A stretch of 32,000 nt of DNA from Vibrio vulnificus CMCP6 (lineage in GTDB: Bacteria > Pseudomonadota > Gammaproteobacteria > Enterobacterales > Vibrionaceae), in assembly GCF_000039765.1 (NCBI RefSeq), contig NC_004459.3, positions 60,001 through 92,000 on the forward strand, in the 5' to 3' direction. Shown here piece by piece: positions 4,004 to 24,899 of this stretch. Position 1 is the first letter of the stretch, and every line of letters begins with the position of its first letter. Under the pieces are notes generated by a model, which did no database searches, had not been told where the DNA came from, and saw only the letters and a program-made list of their open reading frames with translations. The translations under genes and the position numbers were made by a program.

Positions 4004-4608
4004 TAAGACAGCTTGTCCTCTGCCTGTTGTTGGCGCTCTCCATCACGGCATGCAGCATGCAACCTCGCATGCAAAGCACTCAAATTGAGATTGCCGATCA
4101 AACGTTTGTCACGCTCCCACAGCCGAGTGAGCTCGGCTTGGATGTGACGGCAAGCCAATTGATCACCGCGACATGGCAAACCGACACCGGCACACAAACT
4201 CAGCAATTGCCCGTCCAACTGCAAGTTGACCAAAACAAACTGGTTTTGGCTGGTTTTTCTTCGTGGGGAACACGTTTGTTGTCTCTCACCTACCAAGATA
4301 ATCATATTGAAACACAAGTATTGAATGGCTTAGAAAATACCCTACCTCAACCCGAGCAGGTACTTTTTAATCTGATGATCACGCTGTGGCCTGAACAAGC
4401 TTGGGAAGCGCCATTAAATCAGGTAAAGTGGCAACTCATTGACCGAGATAATCAGCGCACCATTATCGATAACCATGGCAACACGATCATTGTGATTGAT
4501 TACGAGCAAGGCCGAAGTTTTGCTGGCCCAATTCGTTTTCACTCGCTGTTAAACGACTATAAAATCGAGATTCAAACCCTGAATTATCAGTTATCGGACG
4601 CGAAATAG
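4000..4608 (+). CDS. small lipoprotein (DUF3261/ApeN-like)
   Basis: ATG at 4000 overlaps the upstream stop (ATGA). Lipobox LSITAC follows a hydrophobic leader (MIRQLVLCLLLALSITAC). The position matches the lipoprotein gene of APE clusters. Confidence 0.6.
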   Translation: MIRQLVLCLLLALSITACSMQPRMQSTQIEIADQTFVTLPQPSELGLDVTASQLITATWQTDTGTQTQQLPVQLQVDQNKLVLAGFSSWGTRLLSLTYQDNHIETQVLNGLENTLPQPEQVLFNLMITLWPEQAWEAPLNQVKWQLIDRDNQRTIIDNHGNTIIVIDYEQGRSFAGPIRFHSLLNDYKIEIQTLNYQLSDAK

Positions 4609-8368: not shown

Positions 8369-8445
8369 CGGACTGTAGCGCAGCTTGGTAGCGCACCGTC
8401 ATGGGGTGTCGGGGGTCGGAGGTTCAAATCCTCTCAGTCCGACCA
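8369..8445 (+). tRNA. tRNA-Pro (anticodon GGG)
   Basis: 77 nt folding as a cloverleaf: acceptor CGGACTG/CAGTCCG, D arm GCGC..GCGC, anticodon loop ATGGGGT (GGG at 34-36, G37), T arm GGAGG TTCAAAT CCTCT, encoded CCA. From memory, identical to E. coli proL outside positions in the acceptor stem and one D-loop base. Confidence 0.95.
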
Positions 8446-8550: not shown

Positions 8551-9717
8551 TTACCCCCAAATCGCCAGCTCAACAGCCGGTACCTGAACCCACTTCTCAT
8601 GGCCCTCTTTGTATATCTTGGTACTGCGAGAATCCGTGTGTGCAGCGCGTGCTTGAGCGTCGTGGCCAGCCTTATCGTACAAGTGAATACTCAGCCCTCG
8701 AATCTCGTGATACGTTGGCCGACAGTCTGCAGGCACACCTTTTTTGACCTTCACCTGGTCCCGTAACTTGGAAAAAAAGCGGCTCAGATATTTTCGGTTC
8801 ACCTGAGTGAGGTGATCACAATACTGGCTCACATCATTGCTGCGTTTTTCCGGCAGACGATGCACCACGTAAGGTGAATCAATATTGTCCTTGCTCGCTT
8901 CAATAATATTCAGCAGTGACCTTGTCACAGGGATAACAACTCGGCTTGCTTCCTTCTTTTTTACCTTACGGCGATGAATGCGCAGATACCCAAACACCTC
9001 AACACCATCTTCCAGAACTGGAGCATCGAGCATGGTGATATCCTCGTATTTCATCGCACATATCTCATTAACCGCGTGCGTTGTCTCGAGAGAGAGGTCC
9101 ATTGCAACCCTCATCCCACTGAGGAGCGATGCCCAAATCGATTTATATTCAGAGAGCGTTAAGTCGCGGCGTTGCTTCTCCTCCTTCGGCCTTACGTTTT
9201 TGCGTTTGGCCGGATTGTCGACCAATCACCGATTCATCGATGCGTAATCAAACACCTTCGACATAAACGCTATCCAGCGGTTGAAGACATTATTTGATTT
9301 ACCTGCAGCAACGGCATCGAGCACCAGGTTCACATCGTCCAAAGTGATGGACATACCCACTCTGTCACCAAGCAAGGTATCCAGCTTTTCTAAACGGCTA
9401 TCAAACATGGCCAACGTCTCTTTTGTCGGCTTTTCATCGGCCGCATATCGCGCCGATACTCGAGCAAAGAACGTAGAAAGCCGTTCAACAGACTTGCGAT
9501 GATGCGGTTTAATGAGGTCGAGATTGACCGGATGAGCGATTTCAGGGTCAACCCGATAAGTGGCGTTGTATCTTCTGGCCAGAGCGATTGCTCGGCTCTT
9601 GTCGTGGCCGAGAGATTTACAGCTGTTATCGATACGCCGAAAGACGTACCCTTTCTTACCTTTAAAATAGAGACCTTCAGGGAGGTCTCTATACTTACTA
9701 CTTCTTGGACGTGGCAC
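8551..9717 (-). pseudogene. int: lambda-type tyrosine integrase interrupted by an in-frame TGA (9226-9228)
   Basis: The N-terminus (PRPRSSKYRDLPEGLYF) parallels the lambda Int arm-binding domain. The C-terminus has HEIRGL (H-x-x-R) and AHTDSRSTKIY (His..Tyr). ORFs 9226-9723 and 8551-9225 are in the same frame, separated only by TGA (..ASMNR*LVDNPAKRK..). The likely start is GTG at 9717, 5 nt after GAGG. Confidence 0.7.
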
Positions 9718-9734
9718 GGTCACCTCAGTACATA

Positions 9735-9929
9735 TTAGTGAGAAAGCAGGTCATCCAAGAAAGGATCACCGCTCGATTTCTTCTCTTTTTCCAAATCAAC
9801 GTAATATGAACGTCCAATTCTTTTCCCTGGCAACGTGCCTAAATCGATTTCCCTACGACAGATACGCACATCTGGCGCACTGCCCTCAGTAAACCGGAGT
9901 TTTCGCCAAAGGCTGAGTTTCACCAACAT
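9735..9929 (-). CDS. xis: excisionase (lambda Xis-like)
   Basis: 64-aa ORF immediately upstream of int with an SD (GTGAGGA). The motif LSLWRK..RICRREIDLGTLPGKRIGRSYYVDL resembles the lambda Xis winged-helix pattern (recalled, not aligned). Confidence 0.65.
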   Translation of the reverse strand: MLVKLSLWRKLRFTEGSAPDVRICRREIDLGTLPGKRIGRSYYVDLEKEKKSSGDPFLDDLLSH

Positions 9930-10060
9930 AAAAGATCCTCACCCACAGACGTTTGAAAAAACCTCTGAACCTATGGAATGAAATTTACAGACTTTTTTGA
10001 ATTCAGTAACTTGCATTCAAATTGTTTATTTCTTCGCCCTCAAGTTGCCGCAAGAGGGCT

Positions 10061-10099
10061 TTAAAAACCTATGGGATGATCACTGGATTCCCATAGGTT
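10061..10099 (-). terminator. intrinsic terminator at the end of the early operon, upstream of xis-int
   Basis: Perfect 11-bp stem AACCTATGGGA (10066-10076) / TCCCATAGGTT (10089-10099). In minus-strand orientation it is followed by TTTTTAAA (10065-10058). Confidence 0.6.
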
Positions 10100-10129
10100 T
10101 AGTTGGAGCCATGAGCATAGTTTTGGCGC

Positions 10130-10645
10130 CTATGCCGCTTTCGAGTTAACCTCCGAGCCGATATTCTGAAGCACTACGGCCACCCAACTGAGCTCTGTTT
10201 TCAAACGATCACACTCTCGAGTAATGGCGAGAACGGACAGTTGTTCCTGTTGAGCCATTTTCTCTGCGAGCTGCTCTTGAGCACTGTCCAATGCTTGAGT
10301 AAGTTGAACTTCCAACTGCTCAAAATAGTACGCGTTAGCTAGGAACAAATGGGCCAAGGTTTCATCCTGGACACGTGAGATGGAAGGCTCAACATCCAAC
10401 GCGTCCGTCAGTTTCTGTTTACCCATTTCTGTTAGCTGATAGAGCTTCTTATCGGGCTTTCCAGATTGCAGAACCACTTCCAGAGACAAAAAACCGAATG
10501 TTTCAAGTTTAGCCAGCTCACGATAAATTTGCTGATGCGACGCTTTCCAACCTTTTGCTGGTAAACGTTTTGCTAAGTCATAACCAGTCATTTGCTGCTG
10601 GCCAACTTCAGCCATCAAGACAAGTTGCAGATTTGATATGTGCAT
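10130..10645 (-). CDS. PadR-family transcriptional regulator, AphA-like
   Basis: N-terminal winged HTH with TGYDLAKRL..WKASHQQIYRELAKLE..GKPDKKLYQLTEMG, then a helical C-terminal domain. The pattern closely parallels my recollection of Vibrio AphA (GYDITKEF..FWKASHQQVYRELNKM..GKPDRKVYSIT..RDEF). SD AGAGGG. Confidence 0.8.
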   Translation of the reverse strand: MHISNLQLVLMAEVGQQQMTGYDLAKRLPAKGWKASHQQIYRELAKLETFGFLSLEVVLQSGKPDKKLYQLTEMGKQKLTDALDVEPSISRVQDETLAHLFLANAYYFEQLEVQLTQALDSAQEQLAEKMAQQEQLSVLAITRECDRLKTELSWVAVVLQNIGSEVNSKAA

Positions 10646-10656
10646 AATATTGCCCT

Positions 10657-11277
10657 CTAATTAATGCGTTTGTTGGTTTCAAAAGTAGCGACTTCGAGTT
10701 TGGATACCAAACGTCCGGTTTCCTTCAGCTCGCTTGGTAAGTCGTTAACTCGGTTTTGGTTCATTCTCAAGTTCACAGACTGAGAGACACATTCAAGATT
10801 GGATAACTTGCAGTTCAACTTATCTCCATCAATAAAGCGCAAGATCATCCCCTTGGGGACAGGACCATGCTCTTGCTCCCAAATGACATAGTGTTTAGGG
10901 CGATAGCGAGTCTTCGCGCCGGTATACGGGTTCTGTTCCGCTACGTTGATAAGAATGTATCCATCTTTTGAACAAATACGTTCATGGCCAATAGGCTTTT
11001 TGTTGTGTGGTACCTGACCTGATTGAAAGCTTCCGGTGTTTGGTTTACACACTCCTTTGGTACCTGTATTCCATGGCAACTCACCTTTTTCAAAACAACC
11101 CGTTCGACCAGTTAACCAGCCATAACGCTTGCAGTATGCAGAGATAGCTTTCTGAGTCTGTTCAAGACCGAACCTAGAGTTGAACTGTTCAGTAAGTTCT
11201 TTCCGAGGAAGAAATGCATGGTCCTTTAAAAAAGTCTTCTGCTCTTCCGTGTATTGATGGCAGACTCCTTTAGGCAT
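10657..11277 (-). CDS. HNH homing-type endonuclease
   Basis: C-terminal RPKHYVIWEQEHGPVPKGMILRFIDGDKLNCKLSNLECVS is a typical phage HNH_3 motif. SD GGAGGA. Confidence 0.8.
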   Translation of the reverse strand: MPKGVCHQYTEEQKTFLKDHAFLPRKELTEQFNSRFGLEQTQKAISAYCKRYGWLTGRTGCFEKGELPWNTGTKGVCKPNTGSFQSGQVPHNKKPIGHERICSKDGYILINVAEQNPYTGAKTRYRPKHYVIWEQEHGPVPKGMILRFIDGDKLNCKLSNLECVSQSVNLRMNQNRVNDLPSELKETGRLVSKLEVATFETNKRIN

Positions 11278-16476: not shown

Positions 16477-16692
16477 CTAGTAGAACTGCGTTTGAAAAAT
16501 AGAAACTCTGCGGTCTTTACTCACCAACATCGGCGCCTCGCCAACCAATTTCACAATCACGTTGGCGCCATTGTCCTTACACCACTCGACAATCGACGCG
16601 TTATGACGATTCCCCTCAAAACTGACCACATGGCCACGGCAAATGTGCTCGGCCGAGATATGCTGCAGACGCGGCTGAGTTAGCGAAAACAT
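16477..16692 (-). CDS. hypothetical phage protein (71 aa)
   Basis: SD GGGAGG 7 nt upstream of the ATG. Overlaps the recombinase stop by 13 nt. Confidence 0.5.
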   Translation of the reverse strand: MFSLTQPRLQHISAEHICRGHVVSFEGNRHNASIVEWCKDNGANVIVKLVGEAPMLVSKDRRVSIFQTQFY

Positions 16693-17384
16693 GTGCTGGC
16701 CTCCCGCATAGCTGACGACAATGATTCACGATCCGGCGTGGTATACACCGAGGTAGTCGCAATGTTGGAATGACCAAGCACCGCCTGAACACGGCGAAGC
16801 GCATCCGGTGATGTGGTGCGTTCCAAATAGCGCTTAGCCCAACTGTGGCGCAGCCAGTGTGGTGTCCCTTCCGGCACATTGGCCAAACGGCACCAAGTCG
16901 AAAAGCGAGATTGAAACGATCGGCGACTCATCGCCTGACGGTTACGGCTGAGAAAAAGCGGACGCTCTAAACGAGGGGTATCCCACTCAATGCCTTGGCT
17001 CATTTCGACATGAATTTTCAGCAACTGCTTGAGCGCATGAATGGCGGATTTGTTGAGAGCAATCGGGTGTTTTTTCTGGTTCTTGGCGTTTTCACTGCGG
17101 TAAATCAGATAGCCTTCTTCAAGGCTTTGCTCCGCTTCACCTACCGTTAAACCGAGCATTGGCAGGTTAAAACGCTTGGCTTTATCGGCATCGGGGCCAG
17201 CCAGCACACCGAGGCGAACGGCGGTTTCGCGCATCAGCAGCATCCAGTAATAATCACGCTGTGCATAAATGCCGTAAGTCTGCTTAACCGTGTTAAACAA
17301 CTGCTTCTCTTCCTGCTCAGTAAAGTAGTGAAGAAAGAACTGAGTCGATGATTGGTTTTGAGAGTGTGAAATTAGGGTTGTCAT
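16680..17384 (-). CDS. tyrosine recombinase, catalytic domain only (Xer/phage-integrase family, 234 aa)
   Basis: Carries the full catalytic set: Arg in RETAVRLG, HWLRHSWA (H-x-x-R), LGHSNIATTSVYT (His..Tyr). Only about 40 aa precede the catalytic domain, so there is no SAM-like core-binding domain. SD AGGAGG. Confidence 0.8.
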   Translation of the reverse strand: MTTLISHSQNQSSTQFFLHYFTEQEEKQLFNTVKQTYGIYAQRDYYWMLLMRETAVRLGVLAGPDADKAKRFNLPMLGLTVGEAEQSLEEGYLIYRSENAKNQKKHPIALNKSAIHALKQLLKIHVEMSQGIEWDTPRLERPLFLSRNRQAMSRRSFQSRFSTWCRLANVPEGTPHWLRHSWAKRYLERTTSPDALRRVQAVLGHSNIATTSVYTTPDRESLSSAMREASTCFR

Positions 17385-17413
17385 GGCCTACCTCCTTTGG
17401 CTTCGCCGTTGAA

Positions 17414-17893
17414 TTAACCGTTAACCAATGCGCGCAAACGCTCGAGCAGCTCCAGTGCCGCGGCAAACGTTTCTTGCAGTTCGCGTTCGATACGATCGAA
17501 CTCATGGCGCTCGATGTCCCCATCTTCGAGGGCATCAGCAATGGCGCGGTTCACATCGCCGATTTCGGCGTGCCAACGGCTGTAACAGTTGAGCAGCTCC
17601 ATGTCGGAAATAGCTCGGTAGTCACCAAGAAAGTAGATGGAATGGTTCAGCTCGGAAGCAATGGAGCGGAGAATTTGCACATCCCCCGTGAATTGCATCA
17701 GCTTAATAGCATCAAACAAACCCAGTTTATGGCTGGTTTGATTGGGGTTGATCTCGTTTAGCAACACACCAGGTCTTTTATTTAGGTGCTGCTCAACCGT
17801 TTCGTTATGGCCATAATCTTTTAGCGTTTGGTACAAAGCATGTACCACCTGCGGAAAAACGCAGGTAGGTGATGGGACGATAGCAGTATGCAT
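17414..17893 (-). CDS. phage regulatory protein, 186 CII-like (CP76 family)
   Basis: VLLNEINPNQTSHKLGLFDAIKLMQFTGDVQILRSIASEL parallels 186 CII (TLRNKLNPEQPHQFTPPELWLLTDLTEDSTLVDGFLAQI, recalled). SD GAGGAG. The position after the Cro/Apl analogue fits. Confidence 0.7.
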   Translation of the reverse strand: MHTAIVPSPTCVFPQVVHALYQTLKDYGHNETVEQHLNKRPGVLLNEINPNQTSHKLGLFDAIKLMQFTGDVQILRSIASELNHSIYFLGDYRAISDMELLNCYSRWHAEIGDVNRAIADALEDGDIERHEFDRIERELQETFAAALELLERLRALVNG

Positions 17894-17918
17894 CGTAAGC
17901 TCCTCAAAAATTGGTACG

Positions 17919-17947
17919 TTTCCATTTTTTGAAGCCTGCGCTACAAT
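17919..17947 (+). promoter_or_regulatory. candidate sigma70 promoter firing antisense to the early operon
   Basis: TTTCCA (17919-17924), exact 17-nt spacer, TACAAT (17942-17947). Confidence 0.4.
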
Positions 17948-17953
17948 CTACCT

Positions 17954-18075
17954 CAGGATGAAATGGTGTTGGAGCCGTGAGCATAGAGGTTGCCGCCTCG
18001 CTCGTTATCCTAGTGGTTGACTGTGAAATTCAGACTTCTACGGCCCTTACCGATTGCCGTTGGTAAGGGTTTTTT
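17954..18075 (+). ncRNA. candidate ~120-nt antisense small RNA (cis-antisense to the cII leader)
   Basis: Bounded by the promoter above and the intrinsic terminator at 18044-18075. No plus-strand gene upstream could otherwise use that terminator. The only ORF inside is 20 codons with no spaced SD. The ends are predicted, not measured. Confidence 0.35.
18044..18075 (+). terminator. intrinsic terminator, plus-strand specific
   Basis: CCCTTACC (18044-18051) pairs with GGTAAGGG (18062-18069) and is followed by T6 (18070-18075). In the minus orientation the hairpin is followed by CCGTAG, so there is no U-tract. Confidence 0.65.
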
Positions 18076-18084
18076 AATACCTGT

Positions 18085-18273
18085 TCACATCGCCTCCTTT
18101 AATGGTGGCAATCCCAACTCCTCCTCTTTCTCCGCTACTGCTTTTTTCAGAAGAATCCGGGTCATTTGTGCCGGTTTACGTTCATCTAACGTTGCTAAAC
18201 GCTCGACTCTGCGTCTTAAATCTAAATCACGCGTAGCAACCAGATCCGCATTTGGATTTTTTAAATTAGCCAC
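18085..18273 (-). CDS. ribbon-helix-helix (Arc/CopG-like) protein, first early gene; Cro/Apl/Cox analogue by position
   Basis: 62 aa, GTG start 6 nt after TAGGAG. RRRVERLATLDERKPAQMTRILLKKAV fits the helix-turn-helix part of an RHH fold. Divergent from the repressor gene. Confidence 0.6.
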   Translation of the reverse strand: MANLKNPNADLVATRDLDLRRRVERLATLDERKPAQMTRILLKKAVAEKEEELGLPPLKEAM

Positions 18274-18325
18274 TTGTTACTCCTAATATGTTAAGCTCAA
18301 TTTTTGAAGCTAACTGAAAACAAAA

Positions 18326-18383
18326 GTTCCAGATATTTAACTTTGTTAACGTTCGATGTAGATACTAGATCCGTTTCTGGAAC
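18326..18383. promoter_or_regulatory. candidate operator set in the divergent switch region
   Basis: Inverted 8-mers GTTCCAGA (18326-18333) and TCTGGAAC (18376-18383) flank a 13-bp palindrome TTAACTTTGTTAA (18337-18349). All lie within the 135-bp spacer between the RHH and repressor starts. Confidence 0.3.
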
Positions 18384-18408
18384 AAAACAAGCCGAGGAAG
18401 GTAAAAAA

Positions 18409-19215
18409 ATGGATCTTTCTTTTGATGAGCGTCTAAATTTCGTTCTTAAAGATAGAAAACAAACTCCATGGGGAAAGAGTTTGGGGTTTACTGGCGCTTC
18501 GATATCTCACATTTTTTCTGGCGGCAGAATTCCTGGCCCTGAGTTCCTCCAAGCCATCCGACGTGCCGAAAACGTTAACCTGAACTGGCTGCTGACGGGT
18601 GAAGGTGCGCCTTATATCGTTGAGTACTACCAATCTGCTGACGCTCTATCCGACTACGTCTGTGCCATGCTCCATGAAGAAGAGTGGGTGGTACATGTCT
18701 GCTCATACCGTGGAATTGCCTGCGTGGTGTTCACGCAACCAGGGCAATACGAGTTCAAAGGAAAATGGATTGATTACCGTATCGTCCACGTTGTGGTTGG
18801 CCCAGGTGATGAGGTGTTAACCAATCTGCTGCATGATTACCACAAAGGCGGTGGGCACATCTTCGTACCAGAATTGACCGAGGAAGAACGTGAAACTGTT
18901 ATCCAAGGCCAAGTCGGTACTTACCTGATGTTTGAACAAATGAACCCGATGCTAAACACCATACGAGTAGAAACTCACATAACTGAAATTGAATTTACAG
19001 GTGGTGAACGCACAGAGAAGCCGGTGGATATCACCATCATGCGTGCCGTCGTTCGTCTGGTAGACGATTGCGAGCACACGCTAGGAACATCGCTCACCAG
19101 CGACCAACGAGCAAGAGTGATCACTGCTGTGTACCGTCAGGCGGAACGCCTCAAACTGACTGAAGAAGAGATACAAGCCACCATAGAAACATCCTTCGAT
19201 GTATTAAGTGACTGA
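18409..19215 (+). CDS. CI-type prophage repressor (Phage_CI_repr-type N-terminal HTH; C-terminal domain of unknown type)
   Basis: ATG at 18409 follows GAGGAAGG. FDERLNFVLKDRKQTPWGKSLGFTGASISHIFSGGRIPGPEFLQAIRRAENVNLNWLLTGEG is the 186-CI-like HTH pattern. No S24 peptidase Ser/Lys motifs were recognised in the remaining ~190 aa. Confidence 0.75.
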   Translation: MDLSFDERLNFVLKDRKQTPWGKSLGFTGASISHIFSGGRIPGPEFLQAIRRAENVNLNWLLTGEGAPYIVEYYQSADALSDYVCAMLHEEEWVVHVCSYRGIACVVFTQPGQYEFKGKWIDYRIVHVVVGPGDEVLTNLLHDYHKGGGHIFVPELTEEERETVIQGQVGTYLMFEQMNPMLNTIRVETHITEIEFTGGERTEKPVDITIMRAVVRLVDDCEHTLGTSLTSDQRARVITAVYRQAERLKLTEEEIQATIETSFDVLSD

Positions 19216-22772: not shown

Positions 22773-24899
22773 CTAGTCTGCGAAAGCTGGGCCGCCAGAG
22801 CGACTTTGTCTATCGAGCTGCTTTTTCACTCGAATAACCATTGCTTCCAGTTTTTGGATCTGTTCGTTACTCACATCTCCGGTTATATGGAATACCGGCG
22901 CAAAGGTTGACGGTGGTGTTTTGGCTGAGGAAACACTTGGCGAAGCGGCAACAACTTGAGCACTCTTAGCAGAGTCGGCCACTTCAGTTTTGGGCTTATC
23001 ATCACCACCAAACCAGCCACCAATCCAGCGGCCAATGCTACTTCCGCCGAGCCCACCTAATGCACCGCCGATAACACCACCAATGGCCGTGCCGATCACC
23101 GGCACAACGGACCCCAGAGCAGCGCCTGCCATCGCCCCTGCGGCCATGCCGCCCATGTTGCCGATGGTGCCGCCAACTTCACGAGATTTATCTGCACCGG
23201 ATAGTGAGCTGTCCATCAAGGTAGCACCGATATCTGCAATCCCGAGCGCGGCGCCTAGATAAGGCAACTTTCTTGCAGCGCCAGAAAGCAATGATCCGCC
23301 GCTTCGCGCTAAGTTTGCTGCACTGCCTAAAGCCCCTGCTCTTGGTCGAACGGCCCGACCTCGCCCACCTCGGCGGCGGCGACCGCCTCCGGAAGAGGGC
23401 AAACCATCACTTGGCATGTTGGTGACATAAACCTTTTGCACGCCTGCAGAACCTGGCAAATCTGGCGAGCCTCCCTCACCACCACTGCCTCCACGGACAA
23501 AGTCCATAATGCTGCTGCCAACTCGCATTGCCTTGCGGGTTGCCCATATCCCCGCCAAGGTTGCCGCAAGTCCGGTCGCTACTTTTAGCGTGGTTTGCAT
23601 CGTTGAAGGGTCAATGCTGTTAATCGCATCAGCCACGGCGGCAATGGGTTCGGCTAAGTTGTCATCAGCAAAGCTCAACCAAGCGGTTTTCAAGCTCATC
23701 ATGGCAGCGTTCGCCGTCATCGCTGCTCGAGCAGAGTCCTGCAGTACTGCAGTGCCATCTCCATCAATAGCGAGGAAATCATTGAGCTTGGTTTTACCGT
23801 CGGCACTGGCCAGCACTTTCATCATGCGCATGGCTTCATCGCCGAAGAGTTCGCTGTACTGGGTAATGTCGGAATCCGTTGCATCCATGATCTCTTTGAG
23901 AATGCTTGGAATATCTCGAAACTTCTTCTCACCACGAGCCAGCGCTTCTTCATCAAACACCTGAATACCAAGCGCTTCGATATCTTCATAATTGGCGGTG
24001 ATGTCGGCTAAAACGGATTCCATCGCACTGGCGGCCTCTGCTGCAGAGCCAGAGCCCATCCGAGCGATTTGTAACATGGCCCCCATCTCTTGCACCGCTT
24101 TCGGCCCAGTTCGCCCCATTGCGGCATAGGCTGCGGAGACCGATGCGCCTTCTGCAGCTAGGTTTTGCAAGGTAAATGCACCCGCTTTGCCCTGCACCAC
24201 TAACGTATCGATGGCACTCAGTACCTCGTCGGAATTTTTAAGGCCGAATTTATCGCGCATATCGGCAAACATTTCGCCCACATCCAAACCAGCCGCACCA
24301 GTGGCTTGCATAACTCGGCCAATGTTAGCCATGTTCTCTTGTGCAAATTTGAGATCGCCCGTCTTCTCAACAATCTTCTCAACAGCTGAAAGCATCTCGG
24401 CTTGATCGACTCGAATGTCCGCTTGCTGGGAAGTCGCAAACATCTCTTTGCGCAGAGCGGCCATCTCTTCACGCGATTTTCCGGCTTGAATACCTAAACG
24501 TTCATAACGTTCTTCAAGCCCCATCACGGCGACGGCAGAGCCCGCGCCTGCAGCGCCTGTGGCCAAGGCTGACCACTGATTACCAACCAGGTTATCAATC
24601 GCTTCGCCAGCGCCAGTGGCAGAACGGCGCAGCAAGTCATTCTTACGAATGGCTTGTCCGACGCTTTGAACGTATTTTTTTAAGTTGGCTTGAGTCCGGC
24701 CAATCGAGCGCCCCAGCCCACCAACTCGGCTACCCGTTTGTACACTTTCGTTGCCAAGCTGCCGCGTATCGCGCTCGAGCTTTTGCGTTTCTCGCCCCAA
24801 CCGTTTGTTTTGCTGTTCCACATCGGAAAAAGCCCGAGAGACACTTCGGTCAACCCGGGCTTCCACTCCAATGCCGACAGTTTGAGTTTTATCTGTCAT
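22773..24899 (-). CDS. gpT: tail tape measure protein
   Basis: 708 aa: helical Ala-rich N-terminal two-thirds, a Gly-rich hydrophobic C-terminal region, position after the E/E' chaperone. Confidence 0.9.
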   Translation of the reverse strand: MTDKTQTVGIGVEARVDRSVSRAFSDVEQQNKRLGRETQKLERDTRQLGNESVQTGSRVGGLGRSIGRTQANLKKYVQSVGQAIRKNDLLRRSATGAGEAIDNLVGNQWSALATGAAGAGSAVAVMGLEERYERLGIQAGKSREEMAALRKEMFATSQQADIRVDQAEMLSAVEKIVEKTGDLKFAQENMANIGRVMQATGAAGLDVGEMFADMRDKFGLKNSDEVLSAIDTLVVQGKAGAFTLQNLAAEGASVSAAYAAMGRTGPKAVQEMGAMLQIARMGSGSAAEAASAMESVLADITANYEDIEALGIQVFDEEALARGEKKFRDIPSILKEIMDATDSDITQYSELFGDEAMRMMKVLASADGKTKLNDFLAIDGDGTAVLQDSARAAMTANAAMMSLKTAWLSFADDNLAEPIAAVADAINSIDPSTMQTTLKVATGLAATLAGIWATRKAMRVGSSIMDFVRGGSGGEGGSPDLPGSAGVQKVYVTNMPSDGLPSSGGGRRRRGGRGRAVRPRAGALGSAANLARSGGSLLSGAARKLPYLGAALGIADIGATLMDSSLSGADKSREVGGTIGNMGGMAAGAMAGAALGSVVPVIGTAIGGVIGGALGGLGGSSIGRWIGGWFGGDDKPKTEVADSAKSAQVVAASPSVSSAKTPPSTFAPVFHITGDVSNEQIQKLEAMVIRVKKQLDRQSRSGGPAFAD

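Follow-up and report, generated by a model that had tools for sequence, protein, structure and literature searches.

A putative antisense RNA at the pE position of a Vibrio P2/186-type prophage, with a predicted co-varying pairing site at the far end of the early operon

Why should the early lytic operon of a temperate phage carry, on its opposite strand, a promoter and, about 95 nucleotides further on, a strong terminator? The question is raised by a P2/186-type prophage of Vibrio vulnificus CMCP6, integrated beside tRNA-Pro(GGG) (8369-8445) in a stretch of 32,000 nucleotides (contig NC_004459.3, positions 60,001 to 92,000), which we call the window and to whose first letter all coordinates refer. 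A preliminary description of the window had noticed these plus-strand signals in the spacer upstream of the cII gene and had predicted from them an antisense RNA of about 120 nt. We followed up this prediction by comparing the locus with its relatives (cited below, where needed, by their L numbers). The reading that we favour, and consider fairly probable, is that the locus specifies a pE-derived antisense small RNA, which would act in cis on the cII leader and in trans, through a bipartite contact, on the distal part of the early transcript.

The spacer has the reported length of 191 nt (17894-18084), between the cII ATG (17891-17893, minus strand) and the stop of a 62-aa gene (18085). Both signals were recovered by our scan. 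The promoter, TTTCCA-17-TACAAT at 17919-17947 on the plus strand, is the sole sigma-70-like match in the region from 16.5 to 20 kb, and the terminator appears as a 13-pair hairpin (18042-18071) followed by a T-run to 18075. With a stem of 10-13 bp and then U6 on the transcribed strand, the latter has the makeup of a Rho-independent terminator; in the minus orientation the same hairpin is followed by CCGTAGAAG, in agreement with the earlier remark that no U-tract exists there. The caution that a hexamer match makes a weak promoter call was also well placed, since promoter-like sites (1 found for 4.2 expected by chance) are not above chance; the same comparison for terminator-like sites gave 5 for 4.2. 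Because the window signals alone do not exceed chance, support for the element has to come from conservation and covariation in relatives.

Related loci were gathered via cII from viral contigs, species-representative genomes, metagenomes and public assemblies (V. cincinnatiensis, V. cholerae, V. spartinae and others); the lineage occurs in V. cholerae, V. cincinnatiensis, V. spartinae, V. plantisponsor and Photobacterium. A covariance model, R1, was built from four close sequences, and structure statistics were computed on 25 distinct sequences, using a covariance-model alignment in place of a MAFFT alignment whose misaligned 3' half left RNAalifold little signal. R1 matches exactly once per locus in 33 loci, which come from Vibrio, Photobacterium and metagenomes (87-152 bits), always directly upstream of cII and on the opposite strand. 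It finds nothing at the distal site described below, nor in loci whose cII is 50% identical or less. The spacer is 77-98% conserved down to relatives in which the CII protein is only 65-70% identical, and the 5' domain of the putative RNA is 89-100% identical, against 69-74% for cII DNA and 69-76% for the cII and recombinase genes taken together. No Rfam family was matched, either in the whole window at gathering score or in 17600-18400 at E values up to 10. A blastn search of the region against GenBank phages gave no match, and tblastn with cII retrieved only cII-like genes about 27-31% identical, mostly from Burkholderia phages, so that there is no cultured close relative from which an annotation could be borrowed.

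The RNA is predicted to start at A17955, which gives a length of about 121 nt. In the predicted fold of the segment 17953-18077, a three-way junction is followed by a small hairpin and by the terminator, and the minimum free energy is -45.3 kcal/mol (z -2.98); the AGGAT/ATCCT pair singled out earlier (17955-17959 with 18007-18011) turns out to be the closing helix of the junction. Standard base pairs make up 96.3% of pair cells and 12 pairs change on both sides, values reached by 0 of 500 shuffles; slid-partner controls are 38-48% paired. The terminator stem, whose loss in homologous prophages the preliminary description would have counted as a refutation, is kept with compensatory changes at 7 of its 10 pairs and with 100% of cells paired, and its U-tract is kept too. 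Among relatives, hairpin 3 has two-sided changes at all four of its pairs, no variation is seen in the stems of hairpins 1 and 2, and the P1 helix varies on one side through G.U pairs. Three asymmetries assign the structure to the plus strand: pairing is 96.3% there against 85.4% on the complement, 101 G.U cells are found against 9 A.C cells, and a T-tract of 4-7 lies on the plus side in every relative. Complementarity to the cII leader, as had been claimed, is complete. The in silico case for a discrete RNA of about 120 nt, on the plus strand and antisense to the cII leader, is strong, and from these comparisons a functional plus-strand RNA very probably exists.

Similarity among relatives stops exactly at the T-tract of the terminator (window 18070-18084; L072, L075, L076, L102 and L104), and beyond it, between the RNA and the RHH gene, the cargo differs, with Bro-N in L102 and AntA in L104. 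Since similarity ends there and the cargo differs beyond, the RNA terminator marks a mosaic junction.

The promoter had been called an orphan. It is not one, as coliphage 186 has the CII-activated promoter pE at exactly the same junction and with an identical -10, TACAAT. In the annotated 186 genome, pE (23400-23462) falls between the apl end (23404) and the cII start (23435), on the strand opposite to pR; its CII site occupies 23435-23462 and its half-sites read ATGTTTG and ATGTTGC. The window promoter likewise stands at the junction of an RHH gene and a CP76-type cII (apl/cII in 186) and is directed against the early transcript, and it shares with pE the -10, a poor -35 and an upstream A(T/C)GTTT motif. 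The -10 is conserved in 30 of 30 distinct upstream regions, as TACAAT in the Vibrio type and TACACT in the Photobacterium type (L069/L084/L085); of the two hexamers whose conservation had been thought telling, this one is kept and the -35 is not. The TACGTTT motif, which nearly all distinct relatives have at an unvarying distance (L069 reads TACATTT), resembles the 186 half-site ATGTTTG. By these comparisons the promoter may be regarded as the positional and sequence counterpart of pE. The two loci differ in what follows. The Vibrio prophage has a structured, conserved RNA and a strong terminator within about 120 nt, whereas the 186 record has pE driving the lysogenic operon and no terminator annotated in the apl-cII stretch; moreover, int lies at the far end of the early operon in the Vibrio prophage and not behind cI.

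A core sequence of the RNA had been said to recur elsewhere in the prophage, and it does: GTTGGAGCCGTGAGCATAG (17968-17986) matches GTTGGAGCCATGAGCATAG (10102-10120) on the same strand. Because the repeat is on the same DNA strand, the distal copy, site2, offers complementarity between the RNA and the minus-strand early transcript, on which it begins 9 nt past the PadR-like stop codon and lies 7.8 kb from the RNA gene. Of all the features, this co-varying trans site, which the preliminary description mentioned in passing, tells us most. Site2 is present as exactly one copy, on the same strand, in every locus reaching far enough, and no copy on the other strand occurs in the loci long enough. 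In lineages with another gene order it stays with the region upstream of int and not with the PadR-like gene. Among 6338 windows of 50 nt on both strands of the 32 kb, none is predicted to form a better duplex with the RNA than site2 does (z -5.3). It is followed in most lineages by a hairpin with a U-run (T1), a second hairpin (H2), a 64-aa open reading frame (ORF) and int. T1, whose arms co-vary in L079/L102/L105, is the likely terminator of the early operon in the lineage of the window. The stems of H2 differ among lineages and its loop hexamer is kept.

The core and its distal copy change together. Four variants of the core were found, each mirrored at the distal copy: the hairpin-1 loop GUUGGA in most lineages, GUUUGA in L068, L081, L082 and L093, GUGUGA in L069, L084 and L085, and, in L034, a bulge ACA instead of AUA. 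Core and copy thereby co-vary in three lineages, and the variable positions are the predicted unpaired parts of the RNA, namely the hairpin-1 loop and the AUA internal loop. We tested intermolecular pairing on a concatenated alignment of 14 distinct RNA/site2 combinations: 94.2% of intermolecular cells are paired and four pairs change on both sides, a result matched by 0 of 500 shuffles, with slid controls at 28-41%. The four both-side changes lie in the hairpin-1 loop (GUUGGA/GUUUGA/GUGUGA), in the bulge (AUA/ACA) and in the terminator loop (UUGCCG/UUGCAG). The central 4 nt of site2 vary (ATGA, ATAA, GAAA or TAAA, against GUGA in the RNA), and a constant or recurrent G-to-A change at site2 gives a G.U pair only if a plus-strand RNA pairs with a minus-strand RNA. 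The terminator loop of the RNA would provide a second contact, with the H2 loop: its hexamer UUGCCG is kept while its stem changes among lineages, and L034 has UUGCAG in both the RNA terminator loop and H2.

A similar arrangement is seen in a more distant locus, L110, with a cII about 50% identical. An element there shares the -10 GCTACAAT and has the terminator loop UUGGCG, and the 12-nt stretch preceding this terminator, ACCTCTACTCAG, recurs 4.8 kb down the early operon (4253-4300 and 8950-9075). This copy lies at the ribosome-binding site of an early-strand HD-domain (YfbR-like) gene, and beside it stands a hairpin, GGGG-UUGGCG-CCCC, whose loop is the same as that of the L110 terminator. 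The 12-mer by itself is marginal (E 0.09); the same two-part logic built from other sequences nonetheless constitutes independent support.

Endozoicomonas relatives lack the Vibrio core, yet a strong terminator occupies the same position in them and points the same way (L070, about 10560-10690; L071, about 10570-10710; coordinates on the reverse-complemented loci). A motif GTGT(T/G)CGAGCTATC is repeated within their element and just after the terminator.

We may thus propose the following mechanism. A regulatory RNA of about 121 nt would start at the pE-like promoter and end at its own strong terminator, before reaching the repressor gene; it would consist of a rigidly conserved 5' three-way junction, a variable hairpin and the terminator hairpin. 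In cis, it would pair fully with the cII leader of the early, minus-strand transcript, its promoter being convergent with the early promoter. In trans, it would pair in two places with the early transcript 7.8 kb downstream, at the junction of the last early gene and the candidate xis-int genes, through the 21-nt core around the hairpin-1 loop and the AUA bulge, and through the UUGCCG loop of its terminator with the H2 loop. The resulting duplex, about 19 bp long and adjacent to the hairpin at the 3' end of the early operon, might lead to RNase III-type cleavage, or to altered termination or 3'-end formation; the distal early message would be lowered and/or xis-int would be uncoupled from lytic read-through. 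The role would be pro-lysogenic or of the immunity type, and linked to CII if the promoter is CII-dependent. The RNA gene, its strand and structure, the two co-varying complementary contacts and the full complementarity to the cII leader are supported by comparison of sequences; transcription, CII dependence, pairing in vivo and the regulatory outcome are what we infer from them. That the RNA acts by pairing with the distal site seems, on the covariation, a good deal more probable than otherwise. The regulatory outcome that we propose is tentative, and somewhat less likely than not.

Several observations weigh against this proposal or narrow it. The -35 is weak and unconserved among relatives. 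No second CII half-site was found at the window promoter, so that no complete CII site can be defined; for this reason CII dependence is something we infer, and its chances seem evenly balanced. Centres of site2 other than those that give G.U pairs leave 1-2 mismatches in 5 of the 14 distinct combinations. Since the core and site2 are direct DNA repeats, a "compensatory" change is the same substitution in both copies, which a shared protein-binding site could mimic. Within the family, loop-loop covariation comes from one lineage, L034, and in the Vibrio lineage the two contact points are parallel, not colinear. When the RNA and site2 were co-folded, T1 stayed intact and only a small hairpin over the PadR-like stop codon was opened; simple anti-termination is accordingly not what we propose. 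T1, in addition, is absent in L080/L103 and is without a U-run in L069/L084, which precludes control of termination at T1 as an outcome common to all lineages. Every lineage has the core copy and H2, though not T1, and any conserved function must rest on these two contacts.

Two further pairings were tried and discarded. Site2 as a simple anti-terminator against T1 offers only a weak alternative of 7 bp, with T1 still folded in the co-fold; a contact between the hairpin-2 loop and that of the PadR stop-codon hairpin, suggested by the co-fold in the window, shows no covariation in relatives.

Other explanations of these sequences have to be considered. The locus may hold simply the pE of this lineage, the structured RNA and terminator being a cis leader or attenuator of the cI establishment transcript with regulated read-through, and the terminated product having no function of its own. 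Such an arrangement, which is compatible with the one we favour, agrees with the pE-like position and -10, with a cI gene only about 330 nt downstream on the same strand, and with the poor -35, as expected of an activator-dependent promoter. We nevertheless judge it unlikely: no alternative anti-terminator pairing is evident in the fold, the terminator is strong, with stem and U-tract kept in all relatives, several of these have extra genes between terminator and cI, and the co-varying distal copy and H2 loop would be left unexplained. One may also imagine that the 21-nt repeats and the hairpins with conserved loops are sites for a phage protein, on DNA or, like nut sites, on the minus-strand early RNA, and that the copies co-vary because the specificity of the protein changes. 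Direct repeats on a single strand, in which the flanks are conserved while 4 nt in the centre are free to vary, would suit a protein site, both copies are on the early transcript, and a linear box with a hairpin loop recalls boxA/boxB; lambda nutR itself lies between cro and cII. The structure of a nut/put-type site would be on the early-transcript strand, whereas here the minus strand is the less well paired one (85.4% against 96.3%), the selected structure belongs to the plus strand by its G.U statistics and U-tract, and hairpin 1 has two invariant U.G pairs that turn into A.C when read on the minus strand. The core, moreover, does not follow the type of cI or RHH gene (L075 has the same core with a cI 49% and an RHH protein 57% identical), a three-way co-evolution would be required, and the conserved -10 and terminator would find no explanation. 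A protein site is in our opinion quite unlikely.

That a conserved 234-aa tyrosine recombinase always follows cII, and that the direct repeats flank the block from cII to the PadR-like gene, could suggest recombination sites at which this small enzyme acts on the flanked 7.8-kb segment. The RNA might even serve as a guide: since the bottom DNA strand of either repeat is a possible partner for hybridisation, it could draw its own locus and the distal DNA site together for the recombinase, which is encoded two genes away, and so direct a rearrangement or excision of the block from cII to the PadR-like gene. Nothing specific points to such a guide, which is highly improbable both as a device for joining the two loci and as a cause of rearrangement. 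Recombination sites in general are equally improbable, since dyad symmetry is lacking in the repeat, its two copies disagree in the central 4 nt, and viral contigs, few of them of this lineage, contain no recombinant junction of either kind. Finally, a chance pair of promoter and terminator, or a small peptide gene, would agree with hexamer matches that do not exceed chance and with the existence of a 20-codon ORF at 17958-18020, which had been put forward as the alternative to an RNA. The peptide does not stand: a 1-nt indel (GGATGAATGG) shifts the frame in the close relatives L072-L074, the ATG directly abuts AGGA with no ribosome-binding-site spacing, and variation across the ORF is compensatory in stems and not codon-wise. 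As conservation exceeds that of neighbouring genes and covariation supports the structure, chance or a peptide can be given practically no weight.

Features of the prophage are listed in Table 1. The claim that all genes from 8.5 to 18.3 kb lie on the minus strand holds for every real gene; a 137-aa ORF antisense within cII (17348-17761, plus strand) is without support and we take it as spurious. Along the minus strand the early operon runs through the 62-aa gene, cII, the tyrosine recombinase, small ORFs, a 936-aa Toprim primase, an exonuclease, an HNH protein and the PadR-like protein. The 62-aa switch protein has no Pfam or NCBIfam match and is 48% identical to a relative with a weak RHH_5 match. 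The recombinase, kept in all relatives including the distant Endozoicomonas ones, consists of the catalytic domain only, with XerC/XerD-like and invertase-like matches; T1 was considered as its site and rejected, since some lineages have the recombinase and no T1. The 64-aa ORF upstream of int, with no Pfam or NCBIfam match, is by position a candidate excisionase. The same ORF and an intact int of 386-390 aa are present in relatives; in the window, int is interrupted in the context ATG AAT CGG TGA TTG GTC, and the prophage may be excision-deficient, or the TGA may be a matter of sequencing or recoding.

Table 1. Coordinates of the putative RNA, its predicted pairing sites and neighbouring prophage genes in the window
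Feature	Position	Strand	Remarks
int	8551-9723	minus	Downstream of candidate xis; in-frame TGA 9226-9228
Candidate xis (64-aa ORF)	9735-9929	minus	Directly upstream of int, good Shine-Dalgarno (SD) sequence; downstream of site2/T1/H2 after a gap
Hairpin H2	10036-10059	minus	Loop carries CGGCAA, complement of the RNA terminator loop UUGCCG
Hairpin T1	10063-10097	minus	CCUAUGGGA...UCCCAUAGG, then U5
Site2, distal copy of core	10100-10120	minus	Minus-strand RNA CUAUGCUCAUGGCUCCAAC(UA), complementary to core
PadR-like gene	10130-10645	minus	Last early gene
Tyrosine recombinase gene	16680-17384	minus	234 aa; directly after cII, within early lytic operon
cII, 186-type	17414-17893	minus	Pfam Phage_CP76, E 4e-25; leader is the predicted cis-antisense partner of the RNA
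TACGTTT motif	17915-17921	plus	27-28 nt upstream of -10; candidate CII half-site
Predicted RNA promoter	17919-17947	plus	-35 TTTCCA, 17-nt spacer, -10 TACAAT; positional equivalent of 186 pE
Putative RNA	17953-18075	plus	Covariance model R1 span, 123 nt, 151 bits
5' domain, three-way junction	17955-18011	plus	P1: 17955-17961 with 18005-18011
Hairpin 1	17963-17967 with 17974-17978	plus	Loop GUUGGA 17968-17973
Recognition core, 21 nt	17966-17986	plus	GTGTTGGAGCCGTGAGCATAG; spans hairpin 1 loop and AUA internal loop
Hairpin 2, stems	17979-17982 with 18000-18003; 17986-17989 with 17996-17999	plus	
Hairpin 2, loops	17983-17985; 17990-17995	plus	Internal AUA; loop UUGCCG
Hairpin 3	18021-18033	plus	Small, variable; CUGU / loop / UCAG in window
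Intrinsic terminator	18044-18053 with 18060-18069	plus	Loop UUGCCG 18054-18059; U6 18070-18075
62-aa gene (RHH-like switch protein)	18085-18273	minus	First in early operon
CI-like repressor gene	18409-19215	plus	Weak HTH and Phage_CI_repr matches

Other repeats surround these features. The T1 arm AACCTATGGGA (10066-10099) has a third copy, AACCTATGGAA, at 9968-9982, about 95 nt away and upstream of the 64-aa ORF; it does not follow the changed T1 arms of L079/L102/L105 and may be a protein-binding site. Between H2 and the 64-aa ORF, an inverted repeat at 9999-10026 (TTTGAAT-N12-ATTCAAA), whose arms differ in L034 and L067 yet stay complementary, is either an RNA hairpin or an operator. A near-repeat formed by CATTTTTTGAAGC (17923-17935), in the promoter spacer of the small RNA, and CAATTTTTGAAGC (18298-18310), in the RHH-cI region, was considered as a shared operator and dismissed, being not conserved in relatives.

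How does the putative RNA compare with known phage RNAs? The closest in logic is the P4 CI RNA, and the closest in location is the 186 pE transcript. The P4 CI RNA is an antisense RNA with two target sites that acts by termination control (PMC4825925). Like it, the Vibrio element would be a small phage RNA with a defined structure, in which exposed stretches correspond to two short sites in the early transcript of the phage itself; in both, lineage-specific variants match in RNA and target, and the target adjoins a terminator. Two short sites on a phage transcript are also the partners of the immunity RNAs c4 of P1/P7 and CA of N15. RNAs of the P4 CI/c4 type are cut from a same-sense leader by RNase P, whereas the Vibrio RNA lies on the other strand from the operon that it would control, with a -10 and a terminator of its own, and is a full cis-antisense RNA as well. 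We obtained no match to the Rfam C4 family with cmscan, and same-sense processing does not apply; the two target sites (core with site2, terminator loop with H2 loop) make a resemblance in mode, not membership.

The preliminary description had also invoked P22 sar, a short RNA from the opposite strand of the intercistronic region after a small RHH repressor gene. The Vibrio RNA is similarly a short opposite-strand RNA in an intercistronic region by an RHH-like gene. However, sar covers the ant ribosome-binding site, whereas the predicted 5' end of the Vibrio RNA (17953-17955) lies about 60 nt upstream of the cII start; it stops short of the cII SD sequence (about 17899-17904), and a sar-like role does not hold. 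The Vibrio RNA differs from sar by its distal trans site, too. In lambda, OOP RNA lowers cII mRNA through RNase III. The lambda paQ antisense RNA, for its part, is activated by CII (PMC7708051). Both resemble the Vibrio RNA as antisense RNAs damping lytic functions; they differ in place, OOP being at the 3' end of cII and paQ inside Q, while the Vibrio RNA is upstream of cII. We know of no structured conserved 5' domain or trans site for either of them.

In the literature that we searched we found no description of a small RNA in Vibrio P2-like prophages or Peduoviridae, and P2/186-type switches are textbook circuits made of proteins only (CI, Apl/Cox, CII). Here a conserved, discrete small RNA gene would occupy the place of the CII-activated establishment promoter, and its target co-evolves near candidate excision and integration genes. 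Probably, then, it is by a small RNA that this phage couples the choice between lysis and lysogeny to a remote region of the genome. In lambda, it is through extra CII-dependent promoters, pI and paQ, that the switch is linked to a distant module; if our proposal is true, the decision of the switch would be carried to such a module by an RNA. It would also provide a new RNA family for phage annotation, with loop variants serving as ready-made pairs of compensatory mutations, and suggests that a heteroimmunity-like, RNA-based specificity may exist in Peduoviridae-like prophages.

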